Positions 36,628 to 51,860 of a DNA stretch of 64,000 nucleotides are shown here, piece after piece. The notes below the pieces were generated by a model. That model saw only the letters and a list, made by a program, of their open reading frames with translations. It was not told the DNA's origin and made no database searches. The stretch spans positions 64,001 through 128,000 of IMG/VR virus record IMGVR_UViG_3300028591_000006, one strand, 5' to 3'. Within the stretch, counting starts at the first letter, position 1. Each line of letters begins with the position of its first letter. Both the position numbers and the translations under genes were made by a program. Source of the stretch: a virus (taxonomy: Duplodnaviria; Heunggongvirae; Uroviricota; Caudoviricetes).

Positions 36628-39033
36628 TTAAGCATTTACTAACGCCACGTTAATGTTGATTACTTCGGAATCTTTCATGATTGCAACTTCGATAGGAATT
36701 GTCAAAGTTCTTCCTGCCTTCTGTGCCTCAGCAAAGGTAGGCATGTTAATCTTGAAGGAGTATACGAAGTTCTTAGTCTGCAAGTCAGTAAGAATCTTTG
36801 TAAGTCCAGATTCCTGATTAAGGAGGTCTGTTGGCGTACTATAACGGAATACAAACTGCTGCTCAAAAGTAACAATCTGTTCACGAATCTGGTCAACAAT
36901 AAATACCGGAGCAATATATGAAAGGTCTGTATTGAGAGCGTATGTAGTTCTCTGTTCCCACATCATTGTTCCGTTATTTGTACTTCTCTGCCAGTTAATG
37001 CGATTTGTTTTAAGTTCTGTTCCAAACTTTTCATAATCACATTCCATAAGTTTTTCAACAGAGATATTACCATAAGTAGCACCAGCTGGTGGATAACAAA
37101 GATAACCATAGCTGCTGAGCATATCTGCAAGAATAGCAACATAGTTGACTGAAGGGTAAACATAAATATATTTGTCTTCTTCAATCTCAACTTCATCAGG
37201 TCTTGAACCAATTGCTACGTATTCATTGGTATAAACATTCTTTTTCCAATTTTCCAAGTCAGAATAGAATTTGAATGCCGGAGCATCGACAAAAGTGTGC
37301 ATAAAGTAATCTTTTGCCTTCGCAGCAATCTTGTTTGCAACCTTGTAGTTTGTGATACCATTCATTGCAATAACGTTACATGGTGAAGTTTCAAGTGGTG
37401 TGAGGTCAATTTCAGATGCAACGATATTGTTACTTCCGTTAGAACCGTTGTCAAGAGTGAAATAATCTCTGATAGCATCCCAGTTAGAAGAGATATTACC
37501 GTTGATAAACAGCTGTACATCACCGAAATCGAGATTCTTCCAGTAAATATCCGATTCTGAATTTGTAGACATATCTACTGACTTCTTAATGCGATACTGA
37601 CTATCGGCATAATCGGCAATGGTTACTCTCCAATCTTTAACTGATACAGGAATACGTTCTACTGTATAGTATGAATCTTTAGAAGGCTGAGCAACAAGTT
37701 CCATCGTAAGTGTATTTTCTGCATCCCATGATGCTGTACCAATTGCATTTACCTGACTTACATATTCGTAAGTGTAAATGTTATGAGAGATAGTAATATT
37801 AGTTGCAGAATTAAGAGCTGCAATAATATCAATGTTTGTTTCTGGTGCAGGATTTACAACAATCATTGTACTTGAAAGAGAAACAACTTTTCTCCATACA
37901 TCCATGTTCTGCTGATACATACCTGTTTCTACAGAACGAGTATAAACATAATATTTGAGTTCACCAAATTTACTTCCAGCATAAAGATTTGAAAGTTCTG
38001 TATTTACATTAGCGTTTGTAATCTCTACAACTTCAGAAGTTCCCCAAGTAGTATTAAGTTTTCTGATTTCATAGAATGTTGTTCCTGCATCTGCTGTTCC
38101 ATACCAGTGAGCCGGTGAAAGATACGTTTCTGTTCCGTCAGCGATATAAACATCTGCAAAGGCTGTAGGACTTCCCTTTGTTCCTTCAGGTGTAATTTCT
38201 GCAAGGTCTTCATTGTAACTCTTACCATCAAGTTCCCACACGTTATCATGAACATCATAATTGGTATTTCTTACAGTACCAATCACCTTTGGAGTTCCAG
38301 GTTCTCCCTGAGGCTCAACAGTCTCCTGCATAAGAGCATTATAGAACTTTGTACCATCAGTCCAGATATTGTACAAATCTACAGTTATCACATCCGTGAT
38401 GATTTCTCCATCTACAACTTTATACACACGAAGTTCATCGTCGTGATTAAGCATGATAACTGCAACTACAGATTCACCAACAGAATCATAAAGTACACAA
38501 CCGTTCTTAATTGTCTTACCATAAAGATTCTTTTCTTCTCGTGGAGAAACATCTTCGATAACAATCGTTTGTGGAGTTGAAGGAGATGCACCTTCATTAG
38601 GAACTGAACTTGAGATAGGAAGTGGTGCAAATTTAATTGCAGTAACACCAGCATCTCCTACACTAGTATTTGCTGCAGCAAGAACCGGTGTAGGGTCAAG
38701 CATTGTAATATCTTCAAATGTTTCACAATCTTCATTTGATTCTTTATTAGAAGATGTAGAGACAAAGTAAGCATTTGCCATTTTAGCATTCTGATTAAGA
38801 CGCCAGACATATGCGTAACTTACCTTTTCAAGAATCTTAGCAAGACCATAATAATTAGCATTATAATCAAGGTCATAACCAAGAATATCCTTGAAGTTTT
38901 CAGCTGTTACATAATTCATTCCAAGTTTACCTTTTGTAGTAAGCATTGGAATTATTGTTCTGAGTAATGACGCACCGCCAGTCTGAAATGACTGGTCATC
39001 AATTGTCAAATATACACCGCTCTGTTTATCCAT
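36628..39033 (-). CDS. Tail sheath protein (gp18-like) with large insertion
   Basis: SGVY..I.D.S N-terminus; VDAP, PPAG...G.I, RIN, MWEQRT...LSYI C-terminal sheath motifs; late promoter 39059-39068. Confidence 0.85.
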   Translation of the reverse strand: MDKQSGVYLTIDDQSFQTGGASLLRTIIPMLTTKGKLGMNYVTAENFKDILGYDLDYNANYYGLAKILEKVSYAYVWRLNQNAKMANAYFVSTSSNKESNEDCETFEDITMLDPTPVLAAANTSVGDAGVTAIKFAPLPISSSVPNEGASPSTPQTIVIEDVSPREEKNLYGKTIKNGCVLYDSVGESVVAVIMLNHDDELRVYKVVDGEIITDVITVDLYNIWTDGTKFYNALMQETVEPQGEPGTPKVIGTVRNTNYDVHDNVWELDGKSYNEDLAEITPEGTKGSPTAFADVYIADGTETYLSPAHWYGTADAGTTFYEIRKLNTTWGTSEVVEITNANVNTELSNLYAGSKFGELKYYVYTRSVETGMYQQNMDVWRKVVSLSSTMIVVNPAPETNIDIIAALNSATNITISHNIYTYEYVSQVNAIGTASWDAENTLTMELVAQPSKDSYYTVERIPVSVKDWRVTIADYADSQYRIKKSVDMSTNSESDIYWKNLDFGDVQLFINGNISSNWDAIRDYFTLDNGSNGSNNIVASEIDLTPLETSPCNVIAMNGITNYKVANKIAAKAKDYFMHTFVDAPAFKFYSDLENWKKNVYTNEYVAIGSRPDEVEIEEDKYIYVYPSVNYVAILADMLSSYGYLCYPPAGATYGNISVEKLMECDYEKFGTELKTNRINWQRSTNNGTMMWEQRTTYALNTDLSYIAPVFIVDQIREQIVTFEQQFVFRYSTPTDLLNQESGLTKILTDLQTKNFVYSFKINMPTFAEAQKAGRTLTIPIEVAIMKDSEVININVALVNA

Positions 39034-46079: not shown

Positions 46080-46105
46080 ACCTTTTATGACAGAAGATAC
46101 ATATC

Positions 46106-47095
46106 CTATTGTCTGAGCATAAAATGAAATCCATTGTATTCAATCATAGGTGAGTTATCTTTACGATAATATGCACTCGCTACAGCCACTCCACCATCAC
46201 CAACACTCATTGGTGATATAAGTGTTCCATCTTCATATCCAGTCACGTTGCAGCCATTATATTTTGACTTCTTCTTTTTCTTCTTAAGACCGGCTGTAAC
46301 TTTATATTTGAATCCATCACCGGCATCCTCCCACCCATCATCAACAGAAATATCAGTAACATTACTTTCTTCATTCTGCTGAGTATTTACTTCTTCTGTT
46401 TCTGTATATTCAGTTTCTTTTGTTTCTTCAGGTTTTTCCTGGATACCGGCAAGTTTATTATAAGCTGCAAGGGCATCTTCACCCTTATCAAAGAAATCTG
46501 CTTTCAAAGTACGATATTCATTTCCATTACGGTAAAGTTTCCAAACAGAGAATTTCTTATCAGCCGGATTTCCTGCAAGAACGGCATAGTAACCACCGGT
46601 AAGTCCACCAATACGCTGAACCTTTCCGACTTTTGCACGACTGAATCCTTTCTGTTTGCGAATCCAGTTCTGAGCATCTTCTGGGGAAATAATGTCTGCG
46701 ACCCATTTACCGGCTTCCTTTACCTTATTTCCAACTTTCTGAGCAGCTTTACCAGTTGCCCTTGCCTTATCTACAATTCCATATTTAATTTTGCCAAGCG
46801 GATTAAATGAAAGGATTAAAGAGGAATTTATGACTGTAGAAAACAACTTCTTCAGAACGTCATTACTTATTACATCACCTTCAGAATATTCAGGAATAAG
46901 GTTCAGATTGTCGTCTATCTCGATTATTTCATAACTTCCATTTCCCATTCCGATAGCATAAAGCTCAGTATATATTCCTTTGTCGGTTAAGATAACATCA
47001 ATATCATTTCCTTTAACTTCGATTCCATTAAGTGATTCATCTTCTGTTTTCAGAAAGGCTGCGATTGCTGATGGTATTGTTCCAGTAATAGTCAT
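46106..47095 (-). CDS. Late protein, unknown function (possible head cargo)
   Basis: TVINSS motif, acidic/basic tail; late promoter 47112-47121. Confidence 0.6.
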   Translation of the reverse strand: MTITGTIPSAIAAFLKTEDESLNGIEVKGNDIDVILTDKGIYTELYAIGMGNGSYEIIEIDDNLNLIPEYSEGDVISNDVLKKLFSTVINSSLILSFNPLGKIKYGIVDKARATGKAAQKVGNKVKEAGKWVADIISPEDAQNWIRKQKGFSRAKVGKVQRIGGLTGGYYAVLAGNPADKKFSVWKLYRNGNEYRTLKADFFDKGEDALAAYNKLAGIQEKPEETKETEYTETEEVNTQQNEESNVTDISVDDGWEDAGDGFKYKVTAGLKKKKKKSKYNGCNVTGYEDGTLISPMSVGDGGVAVASAYYRKDNSPMIEYNGFHFMLRQ

Positions 47096-47123
47096 AAATT
47101 ACCTCTATGAGAAATATATAAAT

Positions 47124-47723
47124 TCATGAAATATTATTACCATTCATAAACTTGAGTAATGTTACTCTCGATACATTCAGTCTTTTTGCTACACTCGATT
47201 TACTCATACCATCTTTCCTCATTCGTCTTATAACACCTTCCATTCCACTCAATTTATATTTGCACGGTTTCTGTCCTTTCTTTCGTCCAATCTGCTTACC
47301 TGACTTTCTTGCATTTTCCATCCCCATTTTAGTTCTTTCTGAGATAAGATTACGTTCTATCTCAGCACTTAATCCAAAAGCAAAAGCAAGAACCTTAGAC
47401 TGTATATTGTCACCTAATTCATATCCTTCTTTTATTGCAATAACTTTTACACCTTTGTTTAATAATATTTGAAGCGTGTCCAATATCATCATTAAAGAAC
47501 GACCAAGACGTGATAATTCTGTAATAACAATTAAATCACCTTTTTGAACAATGTTGATAAGTTCTCCAAGTTTACGTTTAGACGGGTCTTTTGTACCACT
47601 AATATTTTCCGAAATAAAGATGAGATTATAGATACGATGATACCTACAATAGTTCTTGATAGCAAGTTTCTGATTATCCGTAGTCTGCATTGGTGTGCTG
47701 ACTCTTACATAAGCATAGTTCAT
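47124..47723 (-). CDS. Serine recombinase (resolvase/invertase family) with C-terminal HTH
   Basis: YAYVRVST..Q...NQ, E.ISG, GD.I..TELSRLGRS, E.ER.LI.ERT..G. Confidence 0.95.
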   Translation of the reverse strand: MNYAYVRVSTPMQTTDNQKLAIKNYCRYHRIYNLIFISENISGTKDPSKRKLGELINIVQKGDLIVITELSRLGRSLMMILDTLQILLNKGVKVIAIKEGYELGDNIQSKVLAFAFGLSAEIERNLISERTKMGMENARKSGKQIGRKKGQKPCKYKLSGMEGVIRRMRKDGMSKSSVAKRLNVSRVTLLKFMNGNNIS

Positions 47724-47787
47724 AATTTTTTACTCCTAATTTTTATGATAATTTAATTATAACACAAAATAAAATAATGTAAATTAC

Positions 47788-47812
47788 AAACGACCGCTTT
47801 GAATGTACAAGG
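47788..47812 (+). repeat. Crossover site 1
   Basis: AAACGACCGCTTTGAATGTACAAGG. Confidence 0.9.
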
Positions 47813-48043
47813 TGATATGGTTCTGACTTTGCCGGAATACTCGATTGGCAAGATAGATTGACCACATCAAGTTTAACCGGTATATCTATAGACCCTCTAC
47901 CTGAAACAAATAGACTTTCAACGGAAGCGAGGTACATTAATAGTACCGATACAAATAGACCATACACTGACTCTAATGATGATAATTCTTTTGAAAATCG
48001 ACCAAAAAACCTTACCATAAGGATTTGGAGACGCATAAGATAA
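47799..48043 (+). pseudogene. Silent cassette 1 (short, frameshifted)
   Basis: LNVQGDMV frame stops at 47859-47861; the conserved C-terminus ENRPKNLTIRIWRR is in another frame. Confidence 0.65.
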
Positions 48044-48523
48044 CTAAGCCTTTCTTCTCCAAATCTTAATTGTTAAATTCTTTGGTCTACATTCTTGAAC
48101 TGTAGCGTTACCGTTATATTCGGTATAACTACGGTCAACGTATTGTGTACCGTTCCACACTACAGCACCGTCAGTATAAGGTTTACCTTGAAAATTGTTG
48201 TTACCATAATCGTAATGACACCATCCAGACCAATTTCCCCACCAATGAGTATGGTCATTTATGGTATGTGAATGGTAACCATCTTCAGATGTGCTCGGAG
48301 TAGCTACTATAGTACCTGTACCGCAACCTTCATCATAAGAAACACCAGCACCTTGAGCATCTTGATTACGACCATAATAGGAATGGCTATGACTACCAGC
48401 ACCACTCATTCCCCTATCCGAACATCCACCCGTAGTACCTTCACTCCAATGTTTATGGTCCATATAATGTTGATGCCACATTCCATGATTATGATAACCA
48501 TTTTGATAACCTTGTACATTCAA
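48044..48523 (-). CDS. Silent cassette 2 (His-rich fibre tip, no own start)
   Basis: TTG-NVQ at site 2; HxH motifs; ends RPKNLTIKIWRR. Confidence 0.85.
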   Translation of the reverse strand: MNVQGYQNGYHNHGMWHQHYMDHKHWSEGTTGGCSDRGMSGAGSHSHSYYGRNQDAQGAGVSYDEGCGTGTIVATPSTSEDGYHSHTINDHTHWWGNWSGWCHYDYGNNNFQGKPYTDGAVVWNGTQYVDRSYTEYNGNATVQECRPKNLTIKIWRRKA

Positions 48524-48534
48524 AGCGGTCGTTT
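48510..48534 (-). repeat. Crossover site 2
   Basis: Exact reverse complement of site 1 (25 bp). Confidence 0.9.
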
Positions 48535-48539
48535 AGAAT

Positions 48540-48549
48540 TTATATATTT
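48540..48549 (+). promoter_or_regulatory. Late promoter motif on the central invertible segment
   Basis: TTATATATTT 31 nt upstream of ATG 48581. Confidence 0.7.
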
Positions 48550-48580
48550 GTAAACTCAATATTCTTTGGAGATTTAAGTT

Positions 48581-49324
48581 ATGGCTGTAGATAATGAAGT
48601 TCGTAACATTGATTTATTCGGTAATCTTTTGTCACTCAAACAGGATATTTTCGACGCAGTTCACCCTATTGGTGAAACTTATACGCAATATCCACAGCAA
48701 GACCCGCCTGCAACAGTTTATAATAAAAACGGAATTACTTCCGAATGGGAAACAATAAATGATTATGATGGTGCGTTCTTCAGAGCAGAAGGAACAAACG
48801 CAAACCCCTTTACAGAAAAAGGGACCGCTTTGAATGTACAGAATGATATGGTGAGAAGTCATAATCATTATAACGCTCATGTACATTATATAGACCATAA
48901 GCATTGGACAGAAGGTACGAGTGGTGGATGTAGTGACCGAGGTACTGATACTACAGGTTGGCATGAACATGGTTTGGTATTGCGTTGTGGTGATGGAACC
49001 GGTAATTATGGTGTTAACAACGTTATGGTTGATGATGGTGACCTAGTTGATTCAAAAGGATTAATAGGTGGTAATTATGCGAGTGGAGCAGGTAGTCATA
49101 GTCATACTATAAATGACCATACACATTGGTGGGGAAATTGGTCTGGATGGTGTCATTACGATTATGGTAATAACTATTTTACAGGACGACCATATTGTGA
49201 TGGTCCGGTAGTATGGGATGGTACGCAATATGTTGATAGAAGTTGGACGGATTCAAACGATAATAATGCTATTGAAAACCGTCCAAAGAACTATACTATA
49301 AAGATTTGGAAGCGTACAAACTAA
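48581..49324 (+). CDS. Expressed fibre-tip protein: constant N-terminus plus cassette 3
   Basis: HPIGETYTQ..GAFFR collar-like N-terminus; HxH-rich variable part; ends RPKNYTIKIWKR. Confidence 0.85.
   Translation: MAVDNEVRNIDLFGNLLSLKQDIFDAVHPIGETYTQYPQQDPPATVYNKNGITSEWETINDYDGAFFRAEGTNANPFTEKGTALNVQNDMVRSHNHYNAHVHYIDHKHWTEGTSGGCSDRGTDTTGWHEHGLVLRCGDGTGNYGVNNVMVDDGDLVDSKGLIGGNYASGAGSHSHTINDHTHWWGNWSGWCHYDYGNNYFTGRPYCDGPVVWDGTQYVDRSWTDSNDNNAIENRPKNYTIKIWKRTN
48823..48840 (+). repeat. Crossover site 3 (in the coding sequence)
   Basis: GACCGCTTTGAATGTACA 18-bp core, reads T-A-L-N-V-Q. Confidence 0.9.
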
Positions 49325-49803
49325 GCAGTTCTTTTCCAGATTCTAAATGTTAAATTCTTTGGTCTTGTTTCTGTACTACCGGTATCGTCTGTATTGTCTT
49401 TATTGATATAATAACCTGCGTTACTCCAAACTTGTGCTTGATTTGTGTAATTATCACCCCACCAAGTAGCCCAATTATCATTGGTATGATAACAAGTATA
49501 GTCAGTCCATACTCTACCACCACCTGTAGAATTGTTGCTAGGTCCACCTGAATTACCATAATAGTCACTTACAGATACAGATACGGGGTAGTTTGTAAAA
49601 TAATCAGAACCACAAGGTATTACACCCTCACCCGAAGTATTTACACCTATAGCACAACTACCACTAGCACCATGTCCGTGATTTATACTATGAGTATGAT
49701 TAGATAAATCATGTTGATGGTCCATATGATGTCCATGAGAAAATTCGTGTCTGTGTTGCATTCCATGATGATGTGACTGAACAGTTTGACCTTGTACATT
49801 CAA
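49321..49803 (-). CDS. Silent cassette 4 (His-rich fibre tip)
   Basis: TTG-NVQ at site 4; HxH array; ends RPKNLTFRIWKR. Confidence 0.85.
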   Translation of the reverse strand: MNVQGQTVQSHHHGMQHRHEFSHGHHMDHQHDLSNHTHSINHGHGASGSCAIGVNTSGEGVIPCGSDYFTNYPVSVSVSDYYGNSGGPSNNSTGGGRVWTDYTCYHTNDNWATWWGDNYTNQAQVWSNAGYYINKDNTDDTGSTETRPKNLTFRIWKRTA

Positions 49804-49814
49804 ATCGGTCGTTT
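49790..49814 (-). repeat. Crossover site 4
   Basis: AAACGACCGATTTGAATGTACAAGG, 1 mismatch to site 1. Confidence 0.9.
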
Positions 49815-49853
49815 ATATTTTACAGAAACATAACATTTTCTATAATTAAAAAT

Positions 49854-50396
49854 ATGATTGGAAAATATAAGAAATTATACGAAACTGAACGTCAGGTTAA
49901 ACTAAACTTACAGCAAACACTTGCAAATGTAATCAAAGACAACGAAAAACTTCGTTTCGAATTGTCCGAGATATCTAAGCGTATCGGTTTACGAAACTTT
50001 ACAGAACTTCTGGATGAAGTTGAACACGAATTTAATCTTGAACAGGAAAACAACAGATTAAAATTAGAATGTATAACATGCGTCTACACAGATAGTCCAT
50101 GCGTCCTTTCAGATTACGGAAAAGATAAAAACGGAATATGTGACCATTTCAAAAGCGTATTTCAGGAAAATGCAGAACTGAATGAAATAATTAAAAAACT
50201 TAAGGTTGATTATGACACCTGGTATTCCGCAGAAAATCCACCTAAGAATAATATGGAACAGGTAATTGCGGAAGATGATTATGGTACTATTCTCATGGCT
50301 TGGTATTGTGTACATAAAAAGAAATGGTACAATAACGAATGTCCTGACCCGGATGATGAAATTACGGTTGTGCGTTGGAAGAAACTGAAAATATAG
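49854..50396 (+). CDS. Hypothetical protein (coiled coil, Cys cluster, DUF551-like tail)
   Basis: W.S.E.PP....V...W...TVVRWKK C-terminus. Confidence 0.6.
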   Translation: MIGKYKKLYETERQVKLNLQQTLANVIKDNEKLRFELSEISKRIGLRNFTELLDEVEHEFNLEQENNRLKLECITCVYTDSPCVLSDYGKDKNGICDHFKSVFQENAELNEIIKKLKVDYDTWYSAENPPKNNMEQVIAEDDYGTILMAWYCVHKKKWYNNECPDPDDEITVVRWKKLKI

Positions 50397-50422
50397 CTCT
50401 CAGACGCTAATAGATTAAAAAT

Positions 50423-50480
50423 AACAAGGGTATCTGAGTGAAATAGTGTTATTACACTACCAACTCAAAATACCCTTGTT
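50423..50480. terminator. Long interrupted hairpin between convergent genes
   Basis: AACAAGGGTAT/ATACCCTTGTT outer stem with two inner stems. Confidence 0.55.
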
Positions 50481-50492
50481 TTTCACGTTCTA

Positions 50493-51860
50493 TTAACGAG
50501 TTATATCTGCTGCACTGTTTCTTGTCAAAGTTTCCTGATTTCCATCATATTCAAAGCTGATAAATGAATCACCGTATGTAACCATGTAGTTCATAAAGTC
50601 TACATAACTTCCACCCTGATTTCTTGGAATAATGTTATACAGTCCTGTCGCTGTGATTTCCTTTGTGCTGTAGAATGTCAGCCCAGTGTTAGTTCCTGTA
50701 TAAGCGTAAAGGCTTATATTCGCAGCAGTAACATTTACAGTAACCTGAAGATTACTGAATCCGTCATAGCCGCTGTCAGGATTTACTGTAAGAGTGGTGT
50801 TGTTGTTAATTGTTACTGATTTACCTGTCTGTAATCTATTTACCGGAACGTTTGTATGAACTAATACAGAATTGAGCAGCTTATCACCGTCAGCAGTAAT
50901 CATTGTGTCACCGTTTTCGGTAATTGTAAGTTCTTTATCCTGGTCCGGAACAACATTGACGTGAACTTCTTCCATAGCAACATAGTCAGGATTAATCGGT
51001 CGTATAACTGTTTCACCGGAAGTCTTAATCGCTTCATAACGAGTATGCTCAACCGGAATAGTTACATCAACATTAACTTCAACTTCCTTAGTTGCGTCAT
51101 ATCCGTCTGAAGGAATGATTGTGTGAGTTCCGTTAGAAGTTATCTCAGCTACAGTTTTATCCTCAATAATTGGTGCATGTGGTGCGTCTTCGCTTTCCGT
51201 TACAAAGTTACAAACGAAATCCTCTTTCATTACATAACCATTTATTGTTGATACAAGTCCTGTTATCTTTAATGTATAAGATTTTACATAATCAAGAATA
51301 GTATCCGGATAAACTGTAAGAATACCACCTGTGCTGTCTTTAAGAATTGTACAAGGTGTTGTATCAATAGTTGCTATGGCATTATCAATGTTTACCGGAA
51401 GATTGGTTTTAAGGATGAATACAGGATTGACGGGAGCTGCTGATACAGTACCTACCTGAAGTGCAACATCATTAACCTCAACATAAATTGGAAGTGGTGC
51501 TGGTGGATTTACAGGTTCATCCGGAATGAATGGTTTTGGTGCAATATCAAAAGTAATCTCGTCTACAAAAGAATTATATTCACCGTCTACAAAAGCATCC
51601 CAATAAATCATAACCTTACGGGATAATGTTGTATTGGTAACGGTCTTAATGTTGGGAAGTGTGAGTATGACATTACTTGCAGGTGTGAGTGGAATTTTAT
51701 AAAGATTGTCTACAACAGACCAGCTCTCTTTATCATTATTAAGTGCAAGTAATGAGTAAGATACTTTGGTTGGAATATAATAGATTCCGGCACTGTCACG
51801 GAATCCGAGATTTACCTTTACAGTAGAACCTTCATTAGGTGTGTTATTTAATCTAATCAT
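50493..51860 (-). CDS. Virion structural protein with Ig-like domain and about 37-aa repeats
   Basis: Repeats IT.NG...I.P..GYD...EV.VNV; late operon. Confidence 0.65.
   Translation of the reverse strand: MIRLNNTPNEGSTVKVNLGFRDSAGIYYIPTKVSYSLLALNNDKESWSVVDNLYKIPLTPASNVILTLPNIKTVTNTTLSRKVMIYWDAFVDGEYNSFVDEITFDIAPKPFIPDEPVNPPAPLPIYVEVNDVALQVGTVSAAPVNPVFILKTNLPVNIDNAIATIDTTPCTILKDSTGGILTVYPDTILDYVKSYTLKITGLVSTINGYVMKEDFVCNFVTESEDAPHAPIIEDKTVAEITSNGTHTIIPSDGYDATKEVEVNVDVTIPVEHTRYEAIKTSGETVIRPINPDYVAMEEVHVNVVPDQDKELTITENGDTMITADGDKLLNSVLVHTNVPVNRLQTGKSVTINNNTTLTVNPDSGYDGFSNLQVTVNVTAANISLYAYTGTNTGLTFYSTKEITATGLYNIIPRNQGGSYVDFMNYMVTYGDSFISFEYDGNQETLTRNSAADITR

Follow-up and report, generated by a model that had tools for sequence, protein, structure and literature searches.

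We analysed a 64,000-nucleotide (nt) stretch of viral DNA (the window), which spans bases 64001-128000 of a virus record that is complete at 142,789 bp and has direct terminal repeats (IMG/VR record IMGVR_UViG_3300028591_000006), and focused on a locus at 47124-49814 where a gene for a small serine invertase adjoins four short crossover sites. Among these sites lie a middle piece, which carries a putative promoter, a ribosome-binding site (RBS), and the constant first part of a small fibre-like gene, and two tail-to-tail pairs of cassettes, which flank the middle piece on both sides and encode alternative ends for that gene. The locus thus holds four sites that occur in both orientations, share one reading phase, and are each followed by a start-less cassette, and we consider it likely that it is a multiple-inversion shufflon acting on the tip of a fibre or baseplate protein that is small and trimeric. 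The sequence is present in a sheep-gut run, and portions of it also occur in bovine and rumen runs.

The sites, namely four copies of the 18-nt sequence GACCG[C/A]TTTGAATGTACA, lie at 47792-47809 (+), 48513-48530 (-), 48823-48840 (+), and 49793-49810 (-). The original prediction, made from the window alone, had reported four alternating sites near a recombinase that read LNVQ in the cassette frame, and both our site scan and our frame reading confirmed this; its coordinates of 47788, 48510, and 49790 marked the right sites and included a few flanking bases, the actual starts being 47792, 48513, and 49793. T(A/D)LNVQ is encoded in the cassette frame at all four sites, all of which are in phase, and the sites are identical at 17-18 of 18 positions despite their diverged flanks. 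None of 100 shuffles reached the four-site count, and no further copy of the 18-nt site was found in the entire 142,789-bp genome. When the sites were parsed as 12-AC-12, dyad matches numbered 7-9 of 12 at every site and the AC core was present in all four, which points to a 26-bp site made of a 12-bp half, an AC core, and a second 12-bp half, the position of the core being deduced from the sequence. In this parse, the conserved 18 nt would begin with the final base of the outer half, take in the core and the cassette-side half, and extend three bases further. An exact-site scan of viral contigs gave 0 matches, and 38 single-copy exact-site matches in metagenome contigs were set aside as chance, the fibre protein being encoded in none of them and the sole weak recombinase match (L034) showing 25% identity over 79 residues.

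The middle piece lies between sites 2 and 3, where the original prediction had placed a promoter, an RBS, and a constant N-terminus of about 83 amino acids (aa); all three are indeed there, the constant part comprising 81 codons. The putative promoter is marked by the word TTATATATTT, which stands 41 nt before the ATG and is the most enriched word upstream of genes within the window. There, 14 of its 18 copies lie 13-70 nt upstream of ATG-led frames of at least 60 aa on the right strand, including the frames at 39033 (a sheath-like 801-aa protein), 11661, 34230, 57315, and 61402; moreover, the middle pieces of all relatives carry it too. The middle piece of the window lacks a sigma-70-type promoter of quality, and a longer 14-nt motif around the promoter showed no enrichment, in contrast to the shorter TTATATATTT. 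The "late promoter" that had been assigned to the invertible segment therefore holds as a recurrent gene-upstream motif with putative promoter activity. The motif in its form (A/T)TTATATATTT, with copies at, for example, 968, 7646, 11675, 17320, 34260, 39068, 47121, and 61428 (minus strand), resembles the AT-rich late promoters of T4-type phages.

As for the cassettes, four fibre-tip cassettes had been proposed, and the pair on each side and the open frames of cassettes 2-4 agree with this, whereas cassette 1 is frameshifted and is not an intact tip. It carries a one-base frame error near 47820 with loss of the His-rich part, and reaches a stop, in the frame of its site, 22 codons past that site; as a consequence, three productive states are available in this genome. 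Relatives hold intact cassettes at the cassette-1 position, as is evident from loose ends at 47821/47822 and from the related contigs L045 (186 aa) and L046. Cassettes 2 and 3 are 58% identical, and cassettes 2 and 4 end in the conserved, near-invariant C-terminal motif of the protein family. Further, cassettes 2 and 3 are linked by an exact 47-nt inverted repeat (HWWGNWSGWCHYDYGN, 48201-48247 / 49124-49170) within a 180-nt repeat of 78% identity, which points to recent gene conversion and could serve as a substrate for invertase-independent homologous inversion.

Table 1. Features of the switch locus, in window coordinates
Feature	Position	Strand	Details
Small serine invertase, 199 aa	47124..47723	-	Pfam Resolvase and HTH_7; phrog_125 "DNA invertase"
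Strong sigma-70-like promoter of invertase gene	47756..47783	-	TTTACA-16-TATAAT with TG, 11/12; just outside site 1
Crossover site 1 (putative, 26 bp)	47781..47806	+	Dyad 8/12; 26-nt exact inverted repeat shared with site 2
Cassette 1, frameshifted and shortened	47792..48043	+	Frame 0 stops after TALNVQGDMVLTLPEYSIGKID; +2 frame open for 77 codons to ENRPKNLTIRIWRRIR and stop
Cassette 2, intact, silent in this assembly	48044..48529	-	TALNVQGYQNGYHNH...IWRRKA and stop, in phase, 161 codons
Crossover site 2 (putative)	48516..48541	-	Dyad 9/12; source-run contigs end at 48530 and start at 48513
Putative invertible expression module P, 292 bp	48531..48822	+	Motif 48540-48549, GGAG RBS 48568-48571, ATG 48581, codons 1-81
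Gene as assembled, constant part and cassette 3, 247 aa	48581..49324	+	97 homologues
Crossover site 3 (putative)	48812..48837	+	Dyad 8/12; AC core is bases 1-2 of codon 82; contigs end at 48840 and start at 48823
Cassette 4, intact, silent	49321..49809	-	TDLNVQGQTVQSHHH...IWKRTA and stop, in phase
Crossover site 4 (putative)	49796..49821	-	Dyad 7/12; cassette-side half has A where the other three have C
Sigma-70-like promoter towards 180-aa gene (49854-50396)	49819..49846	+	TTTACA-16-TATAAT, 11/12; just outside site 4, homologous to invertase promoter flank

The invertase and its phage

The recombinase matches the Resolvase domain PF00239 (E 9.8e-33, positions 2-144 of 145), HTH_7 (E 4e-6, residues 165-194), and the phrog_125 "DNA invertase" family (E 6.5e-48). 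It has no large C-terminal domain within its total of 199 aa, its frame is intact and full length, and its nucleophilic serine is Ser9, within YVRVSTPMQ. While the Resolvase, HTH_7, and phrog_125 matches bear out the serine invertase that had been predicted beside the sites, the enzyme does not group with Gin, Cin, and Min, the systems to which the locus had been compared. The best model was instead NCBIfam NF009949, "master DNA invertase Mpi family" (E 1.1e-67, positions 1-196 of 203), with a full-length alignment and a score of 227.7 bits, which is under the curated equivalog cut-off of 272, and the enzyme is no nearer to Gin (4m6f, E 4e-13) than to gamma-delta resolvase (E 5e-13). These profile matches place the invertase in an Mpi-like branch outside Gin/Cin/Min, as a relative of the Mpi family rather than a certified member. 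A BLAST comparison of the locus with phage records gave a single 177-nt match, which joins the invertase gene to Bacteroides phage B124-14.

In the whole genome, there is one PF00239 match, namely this invertase, and a profile search of the whole genome for PF00589 (tyrosine integrase) gave zero matches, which leaves the invertase as the sole recombinase of the genome; the lack of a tyrosine integrase indicates that the phage, a 143-kb contractile-tailed rumen phage, is probably virulent. The gene starts of this genome carry ribosome-binding sites of a strong AGGAG type, yet a Bacteroidales family is the closest to the invertase, and the host phylum is not obvious.

Arrangements in the source sample and in relatives

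To read the state of the locus in the source sample, the source-run contigs (46100-48230, 48218-48530, 48513-48840, 48823-49153, and 49141-51815) were treated as ends in a k=31 assembly graph. The breaks at 48530/48513 and 48840/48823 are 18-nt overlaps that coincide with sites 2 and 3, so that the middle piece forms a separate 328-nt contig (48513-48840), and sites 1 and 4 are bridged by contigs without a break. The other two breaks, at 48230/48218 and 49153/49141, are predicted to the base by the 47-nt inverted repeat, with ends that lie 30 nt into the repeat from either side and overlap by 13 nt; as this repeat accounts for two breaks exactly, the reasoning from contig ends is calibrated. 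At 18 nt, the sites alone could not break a k=31 graph, and the reads must therefore hold two continuations after the cassette-2 side and its site, as well as two predecessors of the site and middle piece, with the same applying at site 3. Other causes were considered and rejected, because (i) a co-occurring strain with other cassettes would give 30-nt overlaps, (ii) a 1x2 inversion would put the ends at 48534/48509, since sites 1 and 2 share 26 nt, (iii) a 3x4 inversion would end the middle contig near 48827, since site 4 differs, and (iv) a 2x4 deletion would break site 4. We infer that the middle piece was present in mixed orientation in the source sample, which alone fits the contig ends.

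Besides these contig ends, arrangements expected of multiple inversions were found in L045, in L046, in a joint from the bovine run, and between two contigs of a second lineage, L060 and L061. The bovine-run contig joins 48840 to 49792 on opposite strands, which amounts to the constant part with a cassette-4 type. In L045, the cassette 1/2 junction (109 nt, 94.5% identity) stands on the opposite strand relative to the middle piece, with an intact cassette-1 orthologue beside site 2 and a different cassette fused to the constant part. The constant part of L046 is fused to a cassette whose first 31 nt are those of 47792-47822 and which is followed by a tail-to-tail, cassette-2-like end; this arrangement is the state predicted after a 2x3 and a 1x2 inversion. 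As the relatives are other strains, they attest to the existence of the states and say nothing about the rate of interconversion. In L045, the cassette that is joined to the constant part (L045:1140-1250) has a premature stop at 1178 and goes on in another phase (...GGSHSHSVSASG...), which reflects either a frameshifted expressed cassette or an assembly error.

Simpler relatives, namely the IMG/VR contigs L052, L053, L054, and L056, have the order constant part, site, two cassettes, site, and invertase. Their invertases are 55-66% identical to that of the window, their long fibre protein (334-427 aa) ends in the same domain, and they carry inverted repeats at the homologous place (EKSGVLSKQ). 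In these contigs, the constant part reads towards the invertase, as it would in the window only after a 2x3 inversion, and the left pair of the window occupies the invertase-proximal place that is held by their working pair.

In the second lineage (L060, L061, L062, and partly L048), one site separates a cassette that has its own terminator from a 260-bp middle piece; another site, a pair of cassettes, a third site, and the invertase follow, and perfect inverted repeats of 32-37 nt flank the middle piece. This is the same layout with three cassettes, which indicates that a flipping gene head is conserved rather than peculiar to a single genome. The segment with the two cassettes lies inverted in L060 relative to L061 (870 nt at 85%), and a base difference, at the position corresponding to that of site 4, moves with the cassette between these contigs, which fits a crossover at the core. 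In L063 (L063:2201-2967), a middle piece is fused to an outer cassette and terminator, with no sites, invertase, or other cassettes, and the gene adjoins a homologue of the gene that follows the invertase in L061; this contig represents either an ancestral simple gene or a deletion derivative of a flipped state.

A single-protein scan of viral contigs gave no relative. The closest invertases, which are 69-73% identical (L065 and L066), belong to ordinary shufflons, which keep the constant part outside and act on another, long fibre gene. These shufflons have 12 sites (L066:1647-4950) and 6 sites (L065:3117-4952), with the sequence GAACGGTTTAAAGATACA that reads NGLKIQW, and through them ends of 70-130 aa ("...IGY") are exchanged on a long fibre protein; in L066, the 12 sites are ordered as three plus, three minus, three plus, and three minus. 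In two further large phages, which are related, L005 (L005:5001-6991; 143.8 kb) and L050 (L050:5001-6985; 83.5 kb), three tandem full-length fibre-head paralogues are present with no invertase, and these are a fixed alternative to switching.

The encoded protein

The 247-aa protein of the assembled gene has 97 homologues, which share (i) a conserved N-terminal part of 80 residues (…HPIG.TY.QYPQQ…GAFFRAEG.NA), (ii) a variable, often HxH-rich middle, and (iii) a conserved end (E.RP.NYT..IWKR). In longer homologues, this domain lies at the C-terminal end of fibre-like proteins of 320-430 aa. Searches of Pfam, PHROGs, and NCBIfam with the fibre protein and its neighbours were uninformative, and a profile of the fibre family found no match by sequence among solved structures. 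In a structural search, only 6 of 48,161 solved chains reached Z 2, each being a phage baseplate or fibre protein in kind: from T4, the C-terminal domain of gp10, gp11, and the receptor-binding domain of gp12, and, from other sources, a Photorhabdus injection-system fibre, a Klebsiella phage baseplate protein, and a Bas63 baseplate protein.

A predicted trimer scored an ipSAE of 0.81, as compared with 0.00 for the best of three controls, and the trimer runs agree in at least 76% of contacts, with a partner pLDDT (predicted local distance difference test) of at least 69. The ipSAE mark was reached by 20 of 30 proteins solved as one-chain pairs and by 1 of 23 solved as single chains, counts that hold only roughly here because the trimer run used a custom alignment and three copies; further, likeness to solved fibre trimers may raise the trimer score. 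These models suggest that the protein is probably a small, trimeric, T4 gp10/gp12-like head domain. They also place the crossover within this one domain, such that the constant part would form the helix and the first strands, while the cassette would supply the insert and the closing strand. A trimeric head domain with variable HxH inserts is what the T4 gp12 and gp37 tips show, and a receptor-binding or host-range role is likely by analogy.

Switching model, alternatives, and known systems

In the mechanism that we propose, an Mpi-like invertase made from a host-type promoter would recombine the four alternating 26-bp sites. The crossover would fall inside codon 82, and each cassette would add T(A/D)LNVQ, a His-rich insert, the last strand (E.RP.N..I.IW.R), and a stop. 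Starting from the assembled state, in which the gene ends in cassette 3, a 3x4 inversion would bring in cassette 4, whereas a 2x3 inversion would turn the expression module round and join it to cassette 2; a further 1x2 inversion would then present cassette 1, with a truncated product in this genome owing to the frameshift. With the 1x4 inversion added, 16 DNA isomers would be possible, with only four coding outcomes. The inversions 1/2, 2/3, and 3/4 had been listed in the original prediction, and the site geometry allows all of them, with every cassette in phase. Of the four-state host-range switch proposed there, the geometry stands and the count falls to three productive states, and the host-range part derives from fold likeness only. 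The invertase presumably catalyses these inversions, and the cassettes would set receptor specificity.

Several results weigh against a multiple-inversion shufflon. Cassette 1 is broken here; both long assemblies, namely the window and a near-identical 62-kb ENA contig, show the same state; and no fused constant and cassette-2 protein is on record, a search for cassette-2 homologues having returned only cassettes 2 and 3. While contig ends at sites 2 and 3 fit the mixed orientations that had been expected, no read or contig spanning an alternative junction of this phage was seen, 42-nt junction pieces being too short for listing. Finally, the relatives are different strains with mosaic cassettes, and their differences could be old events. 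The first three of these points favour an ordinary two-cassette switch like the Mu G segment, in which only the 3x4 inversion takes place, the middle piece is static, and the left pair is a decaying, never-expressed duplicate. We regard this as improbable, given that cassette 2 is a fully open 161-codon frame, in phase and with the near-invariant C-terminal motif, that the source-run contigs break at sites 2 and 3 and are unbroken at site 4, and that L046 expresses a cassette-1 type. Moreover, the left pair sits where the working pair of the simple relatives sits, and the far-side cassette of the second lineage retains its own terminator. Equally doubtful is a frozen relic, left by a past inversion or by homologous recombination, with an invertase that is now idle on these sites and with relatives that represent fixed strain differences. 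It would agree with the comparative states coming all from different samples and strains, with the mosaic cassettes and the exact 47-nt repeat that could drive homologous exchange, and with L063 as a fixed version lacking sites and invertase. A relic does not, however, sit well with an intact, full-length invertase frame that has its catalytic serine, with four sites conserved at 17-18 of 18 positions next to diverged flanks, with source-sample breaks exactly at the 18-nt sites, or with the site half that moves with its cassette between L060 and L061, as expected of a core crossover.

A somewhat less remote alternative, though still an unlikely one, accepts the switch and questions the tip, the protein then being a baseplate accessory, a decoration, or a means to evade a protein-sensing host defence. 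The structural likeness to gp10/gp12 is weak, which is a further point against the model favoured above: the best structural match, the T4 gp10 C-terminal domain, has a Z of 5.3 and a root-mean-square deviation of 4.3 over 61 aligned residues, the variable part is poorly modelled in the monomer (mean pLDDT 58), and, with Pfam Gp10_C (PF21939), five homologues match over the whole length under the cut-off (best E 6e-4) while the window protein has no Pfam hit. Foldseek against the PDB likewise returned weak rows only, the best being T4 gp10 (E 0.09), with 1ocy and 2xgf also weak. In favour of the alternative, the protein lacks a sequence family match of its own, has only 247 aa and no shaft, and its better structural matches, T4 gp10 and gp11, are baseplate proteins and not receptor binders. 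A tip is favoured by the His-rich HxH inserts in a trimeric head, which follow the T4 gp12/gp37 pattern (1ocy and 2xgf being the weak matches concerned), by the C-terminal position of the domain in the longer fibre-like homologues, and by the other large tail-region genes that the gene adjoins. Furthermore, in all phage shufflons characterised, it is a receptor-binding protein that is varied (PMC6109161, PMC13596623).

Shufflons that act on phage fibres are established (surveyed in PMC9881135), and the fibre-gene inversion systems Min of p15B, Gin of the Mu G segment, Cin of P1, and Pin of e14 are well described (PMC6109161). Like these systems, the multiple-inversion shufflon proposed here has a small serine recombinase beside the segment, short in-frame sites, start-less cassettes in both orientations, and several inversions; its sites also show the Gin/Hin-type anatomy of 26 bp, imperfect 12-bp halves, and the same 2-bp core, at a deduced position. 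Unlike them, it has its constant part and promoter on the middle invertible segment with cassettes on both sides, rather than outside the invertible region, and it serves a fibre protein unrelated in sequence, in a phage without an integrase. The Rin shufflon of Bifidobacterium prophages (PMC6109161) and the tail-fibre shufflon of BV01-like Phocaeicola phages (PMC13596623) similarly vary receptor-binding proteins of gut phages by cassette inversion, and their states have been shown from assemblies and reads; there, however, constant part and recombinase lie at opposite ends, and the Rin recombinase is of the tyrosine type.

With respect to the flipped promoter, the nearest parallel is Mpi, the master serine invertase of Bacteroides fragilis, which flips promoter segments of capsule loci (PMC4747536). 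In both cases, a short promoter-bearing segment is inverted, or would be, and the Mpi model is the best family match of our invertase. Mpi turns promoters on and off at 13 distant loci, whereas the segment flipped here would add 81 codons that are spliced in frame to alternative ends. In work of Dworkin and Blaser in the 1990s, Campylobacter fetus reportedly has a single promoter on an invertible segment between opposed sapA homologues. As reported, that system shares with our model a promoter-bearing segment that flips between opposed gene copies on either side, and differs in being bacterial and RecA-dependent, with long 5' homology, no site-specific serine invertase, and no phage fibre. In the literature searched, we found no description of a flipping module of promoter and N-terminus for a phage fibre or a serine invertase. 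The arrangement is a new layout of the known host-range switch of Mu, P1, and p15B, in which the gene head moves, while described phage shufflons keep the head fixed.

On balance, we favour the view that such loci form a class of switch, although with less assurance than we assign to the shufflon itself: a late promoter, an RBS, and 81 codons would act as a small invertible element between two cassette stores, flipped by an Mpi-like promoter invertase, in at least two lineages of large gut/rumen phages and in a phage without lysogeny. A moving head would double the cassette stores that one gene can reach by means of very short sites, and would link promoter flipping of the Mpi type with coding-end exchange of the Gin/Min type, which have so far been treated apart. 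If the phage truly lacks lysogeny, switching must occur during lytic replication; its apparent virulence raises the questions of when inversion happens and whether bursts hold particles whose fibres mismatch the packaged genotype. The small size of the module, with a 292-bp head and cassettes of ~480 bp, would make it convenient for working out the site rules of a serine invertase that is non-enteric and presumably Fis-free.

Together, the flanks on the outer sides of sites 1 and 4 make up an inverted repeat of 72 nt at 75% identity (47752-47823 / 49779-49850). Both of its arms hold an outward-reading TTTACA-16-TATAAT promoter, one directed to the invertase gene and the other to the 180-aa gene, whose product contains Cys. 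From these sequences, the second cassette store looks to have arisen with the duplication of a unit made up of site and invertase promoter. In a contig of a rumen run, 49938 is joined to 47751 via 21 other letters, with loose ends there that diverge at 47775 and 49921, and in the relative behind this joint the whole switch may be absent or differently arranged.

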